Origin: Fibrobacteria bacterium
GTDB lineage: Bacteria > Fibrobacterota > Fibrobacteria > UBA11236
DNA length: 37,320 bases
Reading direction: 5' to 3'
Assembly: GCA_041746255.1 (NCBI GenBank)
Contig: JBGTHM010000095.1
Coordinates: 1-37,320, forward strand
Shown in pieces: positions 24,001 to 33,000 of the stretch. Position numbers: made by a program. The first letter of the stretch is position 1. Each line of letters starts with the position of its first letter.

Positions 24001-27000
24001 GATGTACTTCGTATCCAAATAGTTGTGAATGAAGACGGCCTCGTTGACGGTGGTCACCACGTATTCCCCGTCGGGAGAAACCTGCGAGGAAAATCCGATG
24101 GTCTTTTGACCCTTGGGCTTGTCCTTGAAATCATAGTTCCAGCTGAAAACGCCGGCGCGCTCGAACCGGGTTTCCGGCTCCAGTCGCGTAAGTCCATAGG
24201 AGCCCTTGTCGGCTTGGGGCCCGTCAATATCCATGCCCATGAATTTTCCGTCTTGGGAAAAGGAATGGCAATTCGCGCAGGTGGGAAGGTCTTTCAGAAC
24301 AACCTTGCTGCGCGATTCCGCCACGCTGCGCAAGCTCCATTGGATGAGCCTTTCAGCCGCGCGGGACAAGGGTTGCACACGCCCCGACTCGTTCTTGACC
24401 GGCATGATGGGAACATCGCGGTAGAAAATGGGCGCTCCCACCGAATCCCGCGAAGTCTTGAACATGACCTCCCCCCGCGAACGAGGGACGAGCGGGTTAT
24501 CGCGCCGGAAACCTTGAATGCGAACCGTCAGCCATTTTTCCCGCGACATTTCCTTGAGCGACTCCCATATCCGCGCGGGAGGCGTCCAGTTCCGGTATCG
24601 GTTCGGGTCGGGAATTTCCGCCAAGCCCTGCCGGGGGATAACCGCCGAATCGAGCATGGGTTCCGCCAGCGGAGGGCTGGCGGTCACCGTAAACAGGGAT
24701 TGCCCGCTTTCGGAAAGGCACTCCACCATCCAAAAATCAGCCTCAGCTGAAGAATCCATCCACTGAAACCGGGGAGCGGCAAAGTCCGGAGGAAAAATGC
24801 TCCGGTTTTGCGGGTAGGCGATTTCGAGGGGGGGGTGCGGGCCGGCGGAAGTAGGAGGGCGCTTCAGGCTTTCGCTCAGGGAATCCAGCCACAGCGAGGC
24901 CTGGGCTGGCGGGCGGAGATCCCGGGGAACTGGCTCTCCCTCGTACCTGCCTTCCAGGGTAGAGATGTCAGGCATGGCCGGCGCGGACTTTTTACCGCCG
25001 GAGCACCCTCCCATGAAAAGGATCCCGCCCAGGAAAAGCAGTAGCATGATTTTACCCTTCTCAATGTATCGGGAAGGGTACAGTCTCCCCAAGCCGTGGC
25101 GATCGCGGCCTTGAAGGCATAATTTGTTTTTTCCAGAATTCATGCTCTGTTATTGCCGCCAGGGCGGATTTATGCCTTTGCCACAGCCTGAATTGATGGG
25201 CAACGATAAAATACAAAATCTCCATAGCAAGGTTGGTGCAGCTTGCCTGCAGCGGGTGTGACGCCCCATTCTCCACATCGAATCGTTTTGTGAGCTAAAC
25301 GGTTTTTCCCCGACCCGTCCAATCCTTCCAACACCGGAATGGGAAAGAACGGTACATTTCTTATATCGAATATTTGTACAAAATGTTTGTATAGTCACGG
25401 CAGCAAATATTTTAGTTATCGAATACCCATTTGAACTTATGGATTTGGGAGTGTAAAAGGCGGTTAATATTTACACAAGCGGGTGTTTTTCTGGATCACG
25501 GAGAATTGATATGCGAACCAACTTGATACGTGCAATGTTTTTAGGGTTGATGGCCGGGGCGCCCTTATGGGCTCTGGATACCCAACCCGGCGCCGACCCA
25601 GGGCCGGGAATTCCGGATTGTAAAGCGGAATCCAAGGCGGATTCCGGCTGGTTCGCCTTATTCGACGGCACCCAGGCTTCACTCGAAAAGTATTGGTTCA
25701 AGAGCAATGCCAGCCATGGAGACGGGGGCAAATGGTGGGTTGAAAACAATCTCCTCAAATCCAATCAGAATCCCGGCGGCAACGGCGGTCTCCTCTATAC
25801 GCATCGCAAATATTCCAATGTGGAAGTGAAAGTCGATATCAAGCCCGATTGGGAGAATGACGGCGGACTCTTCCTGCATTCCAACGGCAAGGGCAGTGCC
25901 TACCAAGTGGTCATCGATTATAAAAAGGGGAAAACCATAGGCGGCATTTATGGCGAGAAGATATACACTATCAATTACAAACCCTTCTTCCTGGAAAGCC
26001 CAACCCAAATCCGCATAAACTTCTGGAAGGAAAAAACTCCCTGGACCACGATTTGGGATGCGAATGGATTCAATGAAATCCACGCCAAAATCTTCGAAGG
26101 TAATCCTCCCCGCATCGTCAACTACATCAATGGCTATGAATCCGTGGACTATAAGGCTCCGCAGCAGGCGACCGAGTTGAAGAATGACGGCTATATAGGG
26201 TTGCAGATTCATGGAGGCACCAAATCCTGGGGGGGCGGGGCCAATGAGTATAAGTCCGTCAAGGTTCGTGAACTGACCAATAAGGGCGAACCTGTCATCG
26301 ACCCGGCTTGGAGCAATGCCTGCATGACTTCCACTACCCTGTCCGCAAACCAGGAAAAACCATCTTCGCACTTCCGGTCTTTTGCCGAAATTGGGAATCG
26401 CATCCGGATCACCGGTTGGGCCGAAGAAAAATATGAGCTGCAGGTTACAAATGTGACAGGCCGAATACTATACTCCACCCGGGGCCAAACCGGCGCCATC
26501 AACCATGTCGTGCCGATGGACCGGCAAGGGATGTATCTCGTCACGCTCAAGGGGCGGAACTTCCATCGTAACGCCAAGGTATTGGCAAAACACATTTCCG
26601 GCCTGGGCAACTAGGCAATCTCTTAAATTCAAAACCACAGCGCAGGAATCCCCCCGCCCAAGGCGAGGGGCTATTCCCTGAGGGACCAATGCGATTGATT
26701 TCTCCATTCAACTTGTTGCTCATTTCTGCTACGGCCATGCTGGCGCATGCCCAAGAAGACGTGCGATTGAAACTCAACGGCTCCGGGTGGTTACAGTTCG
26801 GGCGCGTGATGCACAGTAGCGATACGCTGGACAGGACCTATAATTATAACGACAACTGGTTCCAGAGCTCCGGCGCCCAATTCACGGTATTGGCCGATAT
26901 CGACCAAAACTGGGAGGGAGCCATGGGTCTGGGCGGATTCCAGGTGCACAATGGACAGGGGACCGAATTCTCCGCCCTCACCACCAGCCTGGGATTTTCT

Positions 27001-30000: not shown

Positions 30001-33000
30001 CCTGCAGGTAGGCGTGGAACCTTATATCTCCGAGGCCCGGTTTACCTATACCCGCGGCGACATTGAAGCTCCTTCACTGCAAATCACCTTCGGGTATTTC
30101 CCTTACAATTACAACCCTTCCGTGCGAAACCTGGGACTGTACCTGCTGCGGGGAACGGTCTATCCCGGCTTCCTTTTTTCCGGGTTCGAAACCGATGAAA
30201 CCATGCCGATAGCCAATACTCTGGGCGCCCGCCTGCATGGCGCCACCGGGCCCTTTCAGCACGATGTCATCCTTTCGAGCCAGACCAATGTGCGTCCCCT
30301 GTTCGATTATTCCCTCGCCTATATCGGGCGCTATGCCAACTCCGTTTTCGAAATCGGCGCCGGGGTCAATTTCTACCGCCTGATTCCCATCGTGCCCGAA
30401 TTGACCACTCCTCGCGATACCACGGTTTTCACCGAAAGGTATTCGGATAGTGAGATCTTGAGCAAATACGACCGCAACCATCTCTATATCGAAAATACGC
30501 CTACGGGGCCCGATACGACCCGGTTCACGCTCAAAGGCACGAAGCTGGCCTCTTTCATGTCTTTGGACTTGAAGGCCTTGACGGGCCAGGGCGCCATGGG
30601 CGACAAGGATTTGAAACTGTATTCCGAAGTCGCTCTCATCGGGGTAAAGAGTTACAAGGGGATATATGACGACATTCTCCAGCGGATACCGGTAATGTTG
30701 GGATTCAATATTCCCGCCTTCAAGCTGCTGGACCACCTTTCCCTGGAAGTGGAATGGTATGGCGCCCCATATAGGAACGATTACCAGAAGCTCGAAAATG
30801 AATATTCTCCCATCCCGGTTTCGAATCAGAACTTGCAAAGGGTTCCCGAGACCGATTCCACCGGGCAATTGGTTATCAGCCGCGGGCCTGGAGAATCCTA
30901 TCCCTATGCCGACCCCTTTGATGTTGAAAATATGGTCCAGGACAATTGGAAATGGTCCCTGCACGGCGCTAAAACCATCAAAAACCAGATCCGCATCAGC
31001 GCGCAACTGGCCAACGACCATTTCCGCACTGGAGGAAGCACCAATTCGGATACCTTTGAATCGGCATTCAGCACCCTGAAGGACTGGTATTGGATGACGA
31101 AAATCAGCTATTTCTTTTGATTACCGAATAGGTCATCTGCAATGAGTTGCTTGGATGCCAGGCAGTCCCCGCTCCGCACCTTTGCTTTGCGTCCTATAGC
31201 GACAATAAGCCGCCTCTGGACCCGAAGTCGCTTCAGAAGATAGGGGATGTGAGAAAAGTTGTTTATTCCACAAAACAGGTTCTTGCGTGGACGCAATGCG
31301 ACCGATCGCCTTCAGCATTAGATTGGAGTGGAATTGATTATGAGTTTCCCTCTGTAGATCCCTTGTCCCACGAGGTTGATTATGGCACGAATGGACATCC
31401 ATTGGCTGGTGTTGCTGGGCCTAATGGTCCCAACCGCGGTGTCTCCGGTGAACGGGCAACCCGTTGGTTGGAAAGGCCCAGGCAATTTCGATTATACGAA
31501 GCATTTGGCCAAAACACCCTCCCAGGCTGCGGGCCTTCCGGACATGCCCCCGGGATTCGAGGCATCCCTGGCGCATCCCAACAACTTCAATCCGCTTGTG
31601 AGCGGATTGGACTTCCTATCCGATGGGCGCATGGTGTTATTGCATTCCTCCTACACGGATAAAGGAAGCATCATTTATCTGGTTGACGGCGCCGCCGGTC
31701 CCAGAGAGCAAATGAAATTCACGAAAATTGCCGGCGACATCCTGGGATCATTCGGAGTAGAGGTTCTGGATAATGAAATCTATTACTTGGCGCAGGATGG
31801 AATTTGGAAACTGGTGAAAAAATCGGGCACACCGGAAACATGGGAACAAAAGTTCATCGCCAAGTACATCGTCCCCGGCATGGAAGGAGGGCACAATAAC
31901 GGGTCCCGCTATCCCATGTTCAATCTGGTGCATGCCAAGGGAAGCCTCTACTTCGGCAACGGCGCCTATAAAAATTTCAACGTTCCCGGCCGGAACGAGG
32001 GTTATGGTCTCAAGCTTGACCTGGCTACCGGTGAGCAGGAAATTCTGGGCAGGGGCCTCCGCATGCCCAATGGGATGGGAGCCAATGCCGCCGGAGACGT
32101 TTTTTTCACGGATAACCAGGGGGAATACCGGCCCGGCAGCCCGGTATACCATCTTGTGAAGGGACGGCATTATGGCATGGCGGCTCCGAGAGGCGTTACC
32201 GGAAATCAGGGCGGGACTATGACGGATATGTTTCCGCTACCGACGGACGAGCCCCTCTATTCTCCGGCGATATGGGTGCCTTTCGGGAGCGAAAGCCGCT
32301 CGCTCACCAACATGCTGTACCTGGAGCACACTGCCTTCCAAGGGCAATTCCTGGCCGGCGACAATGCCAGGGGCGCGGTGCACCGGATTCAATTGGAAAA
32401 AGTCAAAGGTGAATACCAGGGCGCGTATTTCCAGTTCAGCGGCGTATTGGAAGCCGGCGTTCAAAGTCTTACCACGGGCCCGGACGGCACGATATACGGA
32501 GGGGCGCTCGGCCGGGGAACAGGCGGACATAGCTGGCTGGGGCGAACAGCAGGCTTGATGAAGTGGAAGCCCACCGGAGGCCCACTGCAATCCATCAAAC
32601 GCGTTTCTTCACAGCGGGACGGCTTCGATATGGAATTCACCGAAGCGCTGTCGGCCCCTGCCGTGGCGCCGGAAAATTTCTGGGTCCTGTCCTATTACTA
32701 TAAACCCACCCCTGCTTATGGTGGTCCTCCCCTGGATATACGCAACCATAAAATCACCGAGTTGCAAACTTCCGCGGACCGCCGGACCCTTGCCATCTCT
32801 GTTGACGGTCTGGAAGCGAATCGCATCTACCGCATCATGTTGGCCCCCGGCATCAAAACGGCGGACGGGCTTCCCTTGTTCACGTTGAATGCCTGGTATA
32901 CTTTGAATCAAATCAATGAAGCCGGTCCCCTGACCACATCGATGATTTCACCGGTGCGCGCCGTGGAAAACTTTTCCAAAGCCATTTTCCAACGCAGGGA

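Follow-up and report, generated by a model that had tools for sequence, protein, structure and literature searches.

In the operons that hold LamB (malK-lamB-malM), ScrY, RafY, BglH, and ChiP, the gene of the channel lies among those for the enzymes or transporters of its substrate, and sugar-specific porins are represented by OprB and the Vibrio chitoporin VhChiP. The Pgm6 and Pgm7 proteins of Porphyromonas gingivalis (OmpA1/OmpA2) combine an 8-stranded OmpA-like fold with a peptidoglycan-binding domain. According to PMC5300881, their assembly into a heterotrimer is reported or predicted. Gehring and Nikaido (1989), cited in PMC5056734, are the source for the mixing of porin paralogs within one trimer, described for OmpC, OmpF, and PhoE of E. 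coli, and the mixed E. coli trimer is the CdiA receptor and has a biological role of its own, according to Beck et al. (2016). According to PMC8121099, BT2157, a DUF1080 enzyme with 3-keto-disaccharide hydrolase activity, has a signal peptide and presumably works in the periplasm.

The window analyzed here, a stretch of 37,320 nucleotides from the genome of a Fibrobacteria bacterium, harbors four ORFs on the same strand between positions 25511 and 31120, designated H, A, B, and C in that order. The features of the locus are as follows:

25144..25510, + strand: presumed operon promoter region, a 367-bp intergenic region between a divergent PD40/TPR gene and H
25511..26614, + strand: H, DUF1080 (3keto-disac_hyd) protein, predicted to be secreted and to carry a T9SS type A sorting domain at its C-terminus (PF06439, TIGR04183)
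26689..28143, + strand: A, position-1 paralog, predicted porin-like outer membrane barrel of 484 aa (AF2 model, structure alignment, tree)
27082..27201, + strand: loop between strands 5 and 6 of A, residues 132-171 (DSSP gap, conservation)
28140..29600, + strand: B, position-2 paralog, ORF from the first possible start, clustering with position-2 genes only
29564..31120, + strand: C, position-3 paralog, ORF from the first possible start, clustering with position-3 genes only

The region upstream of H contains no ORF, and the G+C content of the 25001-26000 composition window is below that of the adjoining windows. A consensus scan of 25144..25510 detected no sigma-70-like site, and the operon promoter is thus assigned by its position alone. 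The A protein shows a signal peptide of approximately residues 1-21, with a hydrophobic leader ending in AHAQ, and its carboxy-terminus reads RLGFLF. The profile match of B starts from 28230, the likely true start being M31 at about 28227-28230, while that of C starts from 29714, with a likely true start near 29636. The three proteins share 38-48% pairwise identity and all end in phenylalanine (GFLF in A, SYFF in B and C); this residue, F484, is kept in at least 95% of 64 triplet proteins.

A tblastn search of the genome recovered all 15 paralogs at the places named in the preliminary description, together with one fragment. The absence of database matches stated there was upheld for NCBIfam in the case of A, B, and C, and for Pfam save two single-member chance rows (E 0.06-0.08) in a search of the 15 paralogs at E≤10; the porin families Porin_1, Porin_4, Porin_O_P, OprB, Porin_5, and LamB gave no match in that search. 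The family profile matched no PDB sequence at E≤10, the family HMM found none of the 13 Porin_O_P ORFs of the phylum, and hhalign of the family with these 13 proteins returned a probability of 0.6%. The language-model neighbors of the family were Porin_5, Porin_4, and Porin_O_P (score 0.92, ∼150 shared features), an observation that serves as a lead only. The count of 233 homologs was reproduced exactly, and every named match came from Fibrobacterota, as had been stated. The spread of the family, earlier given as 42 of 121 genomes, now stands at 87 of 296 Fibrobacterota genomes, a tally that takes in the unpublished genome G254; it was found in none of the 151 genomes of the large family f6.

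Two other contigs of the same genome show the arrangement found in the window. On C46, H, A, and B run up to the contig end, and a 15-nt in-frame overlap with the end of C125 lies inside the third gene; the triplet is therefore complete, and the C125 gene previously noted at a contig end is its last member. On C127, A, B, and C come after two DUF1080 genes; the contig ends within C, and the C-terminal piece of C opens contig C55. The remaining six paralogs were located beside ThuA genes (four, at three loci) or alone (two), in agreement with the preliminary description. Elsewhere, single family members have neighbors suggestive of uptake: MFS sugar transporters at L069 and L070, ThuA at L071 and L072, and an alpha-galactosidase at L067.

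The order A-B-C downstream of a DUF1080 gene, proposed earlier, was found to extend well beyond this genome, in environmental Fibrobacterota. Families f1 and f2 together supplied 24 operons, in 17 genomes, with a DUF1080 gene followed by three barrel genes on one strand; their gene order has been unchanged since before the f1/f2 split, and no member was lost save for one frameshift in the third-position gene of G267 (locus L057). When labels of position in the operon were placed on an ML tree of 80 rows, nine changes were needed against a shuffled mean of 44.7, and none of 200 shuffles gave a value as low. In a tree of 113 rows, the ABC clade had a support of 99 and comprised 73 rows, all of them triplet members; each of its supported subclades held a single gene position, and all position-1 genes formed one clade; monophyly of positions 2 and 3 was not rejected by the AU test (p 0.37 and 0.25, respectively). 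Ortholog identity was alike for the three positions (0.46, 0.44, and 0.46; 153 pairs from 18 full triplets) and identity within triplets was 0.32-0.48, which together indicate neither gene conversion nor a decaying member. Among 112 arrays in 11 near-complete genomes, 60 were singles, 26 doubles, and 26 triples, and none was larger, although these arrays share descent and represent far fewer than 112 independent events. Outside the ABC clade, triple arrays arose in at least three further lineages (L110/L117, L056/L112, and L111). DUF1080 genes also precede single barrels of other subfamilies (nine singles vs. 10 triples in five genomes), and these cases, along with the many single and paired members, imply that the family does not need three subunit types. 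No alignment column combined at least 80% conservation within every position with a difference between the positions; at a threshold of at least 85%, six position-specific columns were found in the window's own triplet type and none in the other type. Outward residues of the putative interface strands were only slightly more position-specific than the rest, with a within-minus-between identity of ∼0.10 as against ∼0.06 elsewhere.

Tertiary structure prediction of A with AF2, from an alignment of 130 sequences, gave a model with a pLDDT of 90.7 and a pTM of 0.89. The porin fold of the preliminary description was thereby retained at higher confidence (earlier values 73 and 0.76), its estimate of about 18 strands giving way to 16 barrel strands and one hairpin within loop L5 in the DSSP assignment. 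The 13 best matches among 48,161 chains in a VIA-align structure alignment were all 16-stranded trimeric porins (Z 19.3-15.8; rmsd 3.3-6.1 Å over 257-298 residues), namely, OmpM1 (Z 19.3, 3.4 Å, 269 aligned residues), with Omp-Pst1 (19.1), OprB (18.9), VhChiP (18.5), and OprP (16.6) among the others. A step separated this tier from PelB, Wzi, MOMP, Occ, AlgE, and LamB (Z≤14.1). Foldseek likewise placed OmpM1 on top (E 2e-11), with OmpF-type porins at ∼1e-9 to 1e-8. On the basis of this model, A is predicted to be a 16-stranded porin-like outer membrane barrel. The 40-residue loop 132-171, between strands 124-131 and 172-181, was modeled with a pLDDT of 95-98 and contains the near-invariant motif D-x-[KR]-N-L-G-E-Y-L-F-R-x-x-x-Y-P-G (G143 in 130, R148 in 128, and Y152 and P153 each in 129 of the 130 sequences); its topological place is that of L3, the constriction loop that folds into the lumen in classical porins. 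The outward residues of strands 1, 2, and 4 were the least hydrophobic (KD 0.9, 1.1, and 0.0 vs. 2.1-3.5 for strands 9-13), and in classical porins the trimer contact is made on this side. Classical trimers assemble through the face of strands 16 and 1-5 and a latch formed by L2; in the family, an acidic residue in L2 was not conserved, the best column of the 130-sequence alignment being 34% acidic. A, B, and C have a common pore core, in which the L3-like loop is joined by those residues of strands 9-16 that face the lumen (between-position identity 0.5-0.9), and differ in loops L2, L5, and L7; the extracellular loops are the least conserved parts of the barrels.

The H protein matched PF06439 over residues 46-252 (E 1e-15; 58.7 bits, cut-off 26.8) and TIGR04183, the T9SS type A sorting domain, over residues 300-353 (26.9 bits, cut-off 23). 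In its AF2 model (pLDDT 84.5), residues ∼45-255 formed a jelly roll and residues 288-359 a 7-strand sandwich, and the linker at 273-285 was of low confidence. Foldseek ranked DUF1080 structures first, BT2157 among them, and L-type lectins next; 3osd and 8tda were retrieved at E ∼3e-7 to 7e-7, 9fbe and 8rr2 being similar, and identity to the solved DUF1080 enzymes was 14-19%. The genome contains 10 PF06439 matches, of which the four linked to barrels score lowest (43-60 bits for H and its barrel-linked kin vs. 68-114 for the other copies). T9SS type A tails (TIGR04183, E≤0.01) were carried by 13 of 22 barrel-linked DUF1080 proteins and nine of 10 barrel-linked ThuA proteins of family f1, as compared with one of six unlinked DUF1080 and three of five unlinked ThuA proteins in the window's genome, which also encodes SprA (85 bits), a PorV-like gene, and a PorU-type sortase (442.7 bits, cut-off 420). 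The tail on most barrel-linked DUF1080 proteins points to a site of action outside the outer membrane. H is a divergent DUF1080 protein that, judged by its sequence, would be exported to the cell surface. A 3-keto oligosaccharide is a weakly grounded candidate for the substrate, since the barrel-linked DUF1080 proteins are the lowest-scoring and are mostly T9SS-tailed, unlike BT2157 with its presumed periplasmic site.

The reading we favor, at slightly under even chances in our estimate, is that H-A-B-C constitutes one surface nutrient-capture operon in which A, B, and C co-assemble as one mixed A-B-C trimer. H, on or near the cell surface, would bind or process a glycoside, and a small product would pass the outer membrane through a trimeric porin of the classical type, with A, B, and C as its subunits, each a 16-stranded barrel with the conserved L3-like, presumably inner loop. 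The three would be non-redundant, being alike in the pore core and diverged in the outer loops. The cap at three genes per array, the independent triple arrays, and the equal conservation of the positions favor a mixed trimer circumstantially. Three independent homotrimeric (or monomeric) porins of different solute preferences, kept together only by a shared nutrient niche and the promoter shared with H, are a strong, if somewhat less likely, alternative. The top structural neighbors of A are all homotrimers, the divergence in L2, L5, and L7 is what differing specificity or surface selection would be expected to produce, and single-gene members occur at many loci, exclusively so in family f15 (11 singles in G065). 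The near-absence of position-specific fixed residues is in line with independent porins and counts against a mixed trimer, as do the only slightly raised position specificity of the putative interface strands and the facultative, rather than obligate, nature of the known mixed porin trimers. However, independent porins leave unexplained why the arrays stop at three, with triples as common as doubles, why all members were retained in the 24 operons apart from the one frameshift, and why gene order has been constant since before the f1/f2 split, and the near-identical lumen-facing residues and L3-like loop of A, B, and C argue against very different pores.

The frequent T9SS type A tails on the linked DUF1080 and ThuA proteins of f1, together with SprA and the PorV-like gene, could also suit barrels acting as outer membrane anchors or platforms for the adjoining exported enzyme (cf. 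PorV-PorU and PorQ-PorZ) instead of as solute channels. We regard this as unlikely, as the model predicts a 16-stranded porin with a conserved L3-like loop and conserved lumen-facing residues, not a FadL-like barrel as in PorV (FadL homologs Z 9.0-10.2 vs. 16-19 for porins), the would-be docking sites in the extracellular loops are the least conserved parts, members of the family also adjoin MFS transporters and enzymes devoid of T9SS tails, and the PorU-type sortase provides an ordinary route of attachment. The PorV/PorQ type, a FadL-like barrel of 14 strands, was also considered for the barrels themselves and rejected on these Z scores and for want of a Pfam match (PF19572 for PorV); the PorV-like gene lies elsewhere in the genome. 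Export of a polymer or other product in the manner of AlgE, PelB, or Wzi, in place of nutrient import, is highly improbable: AlgE was retrieved by Foldseek at E 7.5e-9 and PelB and Wzi reached Z 14.1, but this tier (Z 13-14) lies clearly under the porins, and no glycosyltransferase, polymerase, or Wza/Wzc-type gene was a conserved neighbor in the 20 + 13 + 17 loci inspected.

Set against the 16-stranded trimeric porins compared (OmpF/OmpC/PhoE, Omp-Pst1, OmpU/OmpT, Omp32, PorB, OprP, OprB, VhChiP, and OmpM1 of Veillonella), the window's barrels share the 16 strands and the long strand 5-6 loop predicted by the model, the C-terminal Phe, and the putative signal peptide. They differ in having no sequence similarity to these porins, in the length of A (∼120 residues longer, with an L5 of 65 aa that includes the hairpin and an L7 of 57 aa), and in the fixed, ordered triplets of their genes. 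In our assessment, the sequence family of the barrels is new and their predicted fold known, and the fixed-triplet arrangement is novel. The BT2157-type DUF1080 enzymes, titled in the PDB as '3-keto-2-hydroxy-glucal hydratase' and '3-keto-glycoside eliminase/hydratase', resemble H in the PF06439 domain and in the modeled fold, whereas H and the other barrel-linked copies have diverged furthest among the DUF1080 proteins of the genome and bear a T9SS tail.

The SusC/SusD systems of Bacteroidota, a phylum of the same superphylum, are similar in that a surface glycan-handling protein is encoded together with an outer membrane transporter and that surface enzymes are displayed by T9SS or as lipoproteins. 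The transporter there is a 22-stranded TonB-dependent protein, whereas A, B, and C have the predicted fold of a passive porin and showed no sign of energy coupling; the genome, rated 100% complete, contains no SusD, in agreement with the SusCD-less character ascribed earlier to polysaccharide-utilization loci of Fibrobacterota. The single members of the barrel family beside MFS sugar transporters, alpha-galactosidase, and ThuA parallel the operons of the LamB/ScrY type. However, LamB and ScrY are 18-stranded, match A more poorly (Z 12.8 and 12.1), and have one gene per operon, and the neighboring enzyme in H-A-B-C would be exported to the cell surface by T9SS. Pgm6/Pgm7 are likewise outer membrane paralogs from adjoining genes in the FCB group, but they are encoded by two genes instead of three and do not belong to a diffusion channel family. 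In E. coli, the mixed trimers come from unlinked genes under reciprocal regulation and form facultatively, whereas A, B, and C appear to be co-transcribed in a fixed order and are always kept together, their mixing being inferred. If they do co-assemble, the H-A-B-C barrels could represent the first case of a porin whose trimer has a fixed, mixed composition.

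Positions 25511 to 31120 of the window hold four open reading frames, all on the + strand, in which a DUF1080 gene (H) is followed by three tandem paralogs of one barrel family (A, B and C) that share 38–48% pairwise identity.

25511-26614, + strand: H, 367 aa; PF06439 "3keto-disac_hyd" (DUF1080), E 1e-15; T9SS tail, TIGR04183 26.9 bits with a cut-off of 23
26689-28143, + strand: A, barrel-family paralog; terminal residue Phe
28140-29600, + strand: B, barrel-family paralog read from the first possible start; terminal Phe; profile match starts at 28230
29564-31120, + strand: C, barrel-family paralog read from the first possible start; terminal Phe; profile match starts at 29714

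The onset of the profile matches places the likely true starts of B and C downstream of the first possible ones, so that the real intergenic gaps would be a few tens of bases. A consensus promoter and terminator scan of positions 25000–31800 returned no signal, internal ones included, exceeding the shuffled expectation. Among sequencing runs, the stretch was listed for no RNA run and for a single DNA run, which may be its source. Between H and a divergent PD40/TPR gene upstream lies an intergenic region of 367 bp. A protein of ∼800 aa with PD40 (TolB-like beta-propeller) and TPR repeats was observed next to H in four triplet loci, divergently oriented in three and co-directional in the fourth.

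Window, 22669-25143, - strand: PD40/TPR gene
Locus L001, 4922-7444: PD40/TPR gene
Locus L047, 11623-14010: PD40/TPR gene
Locus L048, 11566-13947: PD40/TPR gene

Directly downstream of C lies a gene (31376-33202, + strand) for a secreted 608-aa protein without a Pfam match or CxxCH motif and with a weak match to the PVC-type haem-binding model TIGR02604 (17.9 bits, cut-off 122), followed by one (33571-34641, + strand) for a secreted protein of 356 aa whose T9SS tail is weak (17.1 bits); neither gene was found to be conserved downstream of the triplet in other genomes. The window also carries a cluster of envelope and redox genes at 12840-19939, coding for DUF3570, DsbD-type transmembrane, CarboxypepD_reg-repeat, ApbE flavin transferase and heptaprenyl-diphosphate-synthase-component-I-like membrane proteins. 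A DUF4423 protein is encoded at 11452-12372 (- strand), and another near a triplet locus of genome G274 (L058, 2740-3594).

The AlphaFold2 model of A, built from a 130-row alignment, had a mean pLDDT of 90.7 and a pTM of 0.89. DSSP analysis assigned 16 barrel strands and a hairpin (260–268/281–289) within a 65-residue loop, in place of the about 18 strands of the preliminary description. Between strands 5 (124–131) and 6 (172–181), the model contains a 40-residue loop with a pLDDT of 95–98, which we take to correspond, in topology only, to the L3 constriction loop in classical porins. This loop harbors the strongest motif of the family, D-x-[KR]-N-L-G-E-Y-L-F-R-x-x-x-Y-P-G, and among 130 sequences G143 was conserved in 130, R148 in 128, and Y152 and P153 in 129 each. 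Comparison with the L2-Glu/L3-Arg latch of OmpF/OmpC showed an invariant Arg in this L3-like loop and no conserved acidic residue in L2, which speaks neither for nor against a latch. Alignment of the model against 48,161 representative chains with VIA-align placed 16-stranded trimeric porins in all of the top 13 positions, namely OmpM1 (Z 19.3), Omp-Pst1 (19.1), OprB (18.9), OmpT (18.7), Omp32 (18.6), VhChiP (18.5), DcaP (18.5), BpsOmp38 (18.0), OmpU (17.9), the Rhodopseudomonas blastica porin (17.5), PorB (17.0), OprP (16.6) and 3por (15.8). Below this tier, scores dropped to Z<=14.1 for PelB, Wzi, MOMP, Occ channels, AlgE, LamB and ScrY, and to 9–10 for FadL-type barrels. Foldseek likewise returned OmpM1 (E 2e-11) and OmpF-type porins (∼1e-9 to 1e-8), with target-normalised TM-scores of 0.55–0.65. 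The earlier term "porin-like" can thus be sharpened to a classical 16-stranded porin fold with no detectable sequence similarity, and this predicted fold of A is well supported.

Searches with the Pfam porin families gave no match to the 15 paralogs of the window's genome even at E<=10, and two single-member Pfam rows (E 0.06–0.08) among these paralogs were set aside as noise. NCBIfam gave no match to A, B or C, and a profile of 130 diverse family members matched no PDB chain at E<=10. Remote homology to Porin_O_P was considered and rejected, as the family HMM misses Porin_O_P proteins from Fibrobacterota and profile-profile comparison with them gave a probability of 0.6%. The 15-paralog profile retrieved 985 representatives (50%-identity clusters) at E<=1e-3 and 650 at E<=1e-30; with A alone as the query, the 233 homologs reported previously were recovered in the same number. 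P0266 (883 aa, from one metagenome contig), the sole homolog of greater length, was evaluated as a two-barrel fusion and turned out to be a read-through of two tandem genes, since a frameshift costs the first barrel its last strand and the signal peptide of the second gene is internal. In a literature search whose coverage excluded most subscription journals, no description of the family or of fixed porin triplets was found, Fibrobacterota porin papers were irrelevant by title, a heterotrimeric porin was encountered only for E. coli, and DUF1080 together with ThuA only for B. thetaiotaomicron. The barrel family is thus new in sequence and in its genetic arrangement, whereas its fold is a known one.

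Profile search of 296 Fibrobacterota genomes detected the family in 87. By taxonomic family, the counts were 31/31 in f1, 5/6 in f2, 31/46 in f13, 8/8 in f15, 4/4 in f16 and 0/151 in f6. Of the results given here, these tallies alone draw on the unpublished genome G254. All named matches came from Fibrobacteres/Fibrobacteria MAGs or from Chitinispirillaceae (Fibrobacterota per NCBI), and Fibrobacterota was the commonest phylum in the nearest language-model clusters. It is likely that the family is restricted to Fibrobacterota, the phylum to which the searched genomes belong. One genome of 2.2 Mb (that of L011), whose hit coordinates are identical to those of the f1 genome G266, carries ∼22 barrel-family genes, roughly one per 100 kb. 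The window's genome encodes five TonB-dependent receptors and one Porin_O_P-like gene, and no SusD was found in it. Classical porin families are rare in the phylum; Porin_O_P was present in only 10 of 121 sampled Fibrobacterota genomes and in 0 of 47 of family f6. The Fibrobacterota lineages that carry the barrel family probably have it as their chief set of porins.

In the window's genome, tblastn located barrel genes on C95 (the window's contig; three), C46 (two), C125 (one, at the contig end), C127 (three) and C129 (two), and one each on C72, C24, C123 and C8. The third gene of C127, whose operon is preceded by a further DUF1080 gene, is cut by the contig end, and its C-terminal piece lies at the start of C55. 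C46 ends inside its third barrel gene with a 15-nt in-frame overlap with the end of C125, which gives three complete H-A-B-C operons in this genome. Further regions were fetched, 20 of them picked for tandem matches and thus subject to selection bias, and 17 from five fully listed genomes. The arrangement noted in the preliminary description, a DUF1080 gene and then three barrel genes in the same orientation, was observed in 24 operons distributed over 17 f1 and f2 genomes, with the tails of two more; Pfam assigned PF06439 to the gene upstream of the triplet except in a few very divergent cases.

Maximum-likelihood analysis of 80 proteins resolved position 1 as one clade (SH-aLRT 98), position 2 as two clades (100 and 100) and position 3 as two clades (99 and 93), and positions were never mixed in any supported clade. 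Position labels required nine changes on this tree versus a shuffled mean of 44.7. In the AU test, monophyly of all position-2 genes (p 0.37) and of all position-3 genes (p 0.25) was not rejected, which agrees with a single ancestral triplication. When three newly found triplets (L113, L115 and L116) were included in a 113-row FastTree, the pattern was the same; its clade of A, B and C genes (the ABC clade; 73 rows, support 99) contained triplet members only. Mean ortholog identity by position was 0.46, 0.44 and 0.46 (153 pairs, 18 full triplets), and identity within a triplet was 0.32–0.48. Judged from their sequences, no triplet member is decaying and gene conversion is absent, with the exception of one frameshifted gene of G267 (third barrel gene of a DUF1080 triplet, L057 1-1100, frameshift near profile position 250–285), which may stem from a MAG error or mark a pseudogene. 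A, B and C clearly constitute an interdependent, anciently fixed unit.

All barrel-family matches were also scored in ten near-complete genomes (98–100%), an array being defined as genes on the same strand with gaps <500 bp. The first five genomes contained 19 singles, 13 doubles and 15 triples, the second five 37, 12 and 8, and the window's genome 4, 1 and 3. The total of 112 arrays from 11 genomes thus comprised 60 singles, 26 doubles and 26 triples, with none of four or more genes. These arrays share descent, however, the choice of gap threshold is arbitrary, and an array may be split where a contig ends. In the 113-row FastTree, triple arrays arose in at least three further lineages outside the ABC clade: a DUF1080-linked one (L110/L117, support 99), another represented by L111, and a ThuA-linked one (L056/L112) in which f1 and f2 genes pair with each other at positions 2 and 3. 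Orthology was position-specific in the conserved doublets L004/L011 and L060/L062 as well. A ThuA-linked array in a complete single-contig genome (L114, G274:C1:3224500-3231500) is split into four short ORFs (322, 111, 340 and 204 aa), one match being interrupted by a TAA, and appears to be decaying.

Tandem duplication that occurs readily, reaches three several times and never goes beyond it is as expected if the genes of an array supply the subunits of a single trimer. This maximum of three is a new argument for co-assembly of A, B and C into one mixed trimer, a reading that we hold tentatively and put at somewhat short of an even chance. That the three form separate homotrimeric channels is nearly as likely. 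Lumen-facing residues (strands 9–16) and the L3-like loop showed a between-position identity of 0.5–0.9, nearly equal to that within positions, and loops L2, L5 and L7 were variable even within one position (0.25–0.32). No column was fixed per position yet different between positions across all triplets, and the window's own triplet type had just six such columns. Outward residues of strands 1–4 and 16 were slightly more position-specific than others (∼0.10 vs ∼0.06). On this basis, the sequences neither reveal nor exclude a specialised hetero-interface. In classical porins, the trimer contact is formed by the strand 16/1–5 side. With the more hydrophobic side of every strand assigned as its outward face, the least hydrophobic outward faces in the model of A were those of strands 1, 2 and 4 (mean Kyte-Doolittle 0.9, 1.1 and 0.0; aliphatic fraction 0.37–0.58; Gly 4–18%), and strands 9–13 had values of 2.1–3.5 with an aliphatic fraction of 0.70–0.97. 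This modeled pattern fits an oligomer and is no proof of one.

The model of H (pLDDT 84.5) consists of a jelly roll joined by a linker of low confidence to a C-terminal sandwich of seven strands. Its best structural matches were DUF1080 crystal structures, including BT2157 (3osd; 8tda, "3-keto-2-hydroxy-glucal hydratase") and 9fbe and 8rr2 ("3-keto-glycoside eliminase/hydratase"), followed by L-type lectins. Of the ten DUF1080 genes in the window's genome, the four linked to barrels score lowest (43–60 vs 68–114 bits), and the three barrel-linked ThuA genes are the lowest-scoring full matches among eight. T9SS tails (E<=0.01) were detected in 13/22 barrel-linked DUF1080 proteins and in 9/10 (f1) and 0/2 (f17) barrel-linked ThuA proteins; for unlinked genes of the window's genome, the counts were 1/6 and 3/5, respectively. 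Since this genome encodes SprA, a PorV-like gene and a PorU-type sortase, the T9SS tail suggests that H is most likely displayed outside the outer membrane. Such a location suits a step in which H captures or cleaves a substrate and the product then diffuses through a porin. By analogy with PorV/PorQ (PMC5562754), the barrels might instead anchor T9SS cargo; the porin fold and conserved pore lining speak against such a role, which we consider quite unlikely, and a role in export even more improbable.

A dehydrogenase was not found as a constant member of the H-A-B-C operon. A PQQ-type glucose/sorbosone dehydrogenase (GSDH, PF07995) gene is a divergent neighbour of the operon at four loci and is broken at a fifth; a Kelch-repeat protein was often observed beside it at triplet operons.

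L001, 7795-9453: PF07995 gene
L043, 12289-13947: PF07995 gene
L044, 2008-3552: PF07995 gene
L045, 3003-4556: PF07995 gene
L052, 3069-4748: PF07995 gene, broken in two

In the distant families f13, f15, f17, f18 and f20, single barrel members adjoin MFS sugar transporters (L069, L070), an alpha-galactosidase (L067), ThuA (L071, L072), RidA-like and beta-propeller/lactonase-like proteins, and esterases. These neighbours make small carbohydrate-derived solutes a reasonable guess for the substrate; 3-keto oligosaccharides are not established as such. DUF1080 genes also precede single barrels of other subfamilies (9 singles vs 10 triples in five genomes), so that the link between DUF1080 and barrels is recurrent and not tied to triplets.

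On a bolder reading than the mixed trimer, each tandem array would encode the subunits of one trimeric porin, with one gene giving a homotrimer, two genes a 2:1 trimer and three genes an A-B-C heterotrimer. In H-A-B-C, the three differing outer faces of a fixed asymmetric heterotrimer might dock or serve the T9SS-displayed DUF1080 enzyme. Capture at the surface and uptake could then be performed by one passive machine that needs no SusCD, and it would be the principal route of nutrient entry in Fibrobacterota other than Fibrobacter. Taken jointly, an obligate rule of three, a fixed heterotrimer serving H, SusCD-independent uptake and the main nutrient gate remain a doubtful combination. Whatever the subunit composition, the dominant porin-like family of environmental Fibrobacterota now has a name and a fold. 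The T9SS-exported DUF1080 and ThuA proteins belong to abundant, poorly understood families, and their link with the barrels offers a handle on sugar uptake by polysaccharide-degrading Fibrobacterota.

PMC8121099 describes hydrolysis of 3-keto-trehalose by BT2157 in vitro and a signal peptide, from which BT2157 is taken to be periplasmic. The predicted surface placement of H does not fit this known periplasmic 3-keto pathway. Porins are textbook homotrimers, and many soluble complexes have evolved into asymmetric hetero-complexes. If A, B and C do co-assemble, porin trimers can evolve in the same direction, with three diverged subunits hard-wired in one operon whose order has been kept since before the split of two bacterial families.
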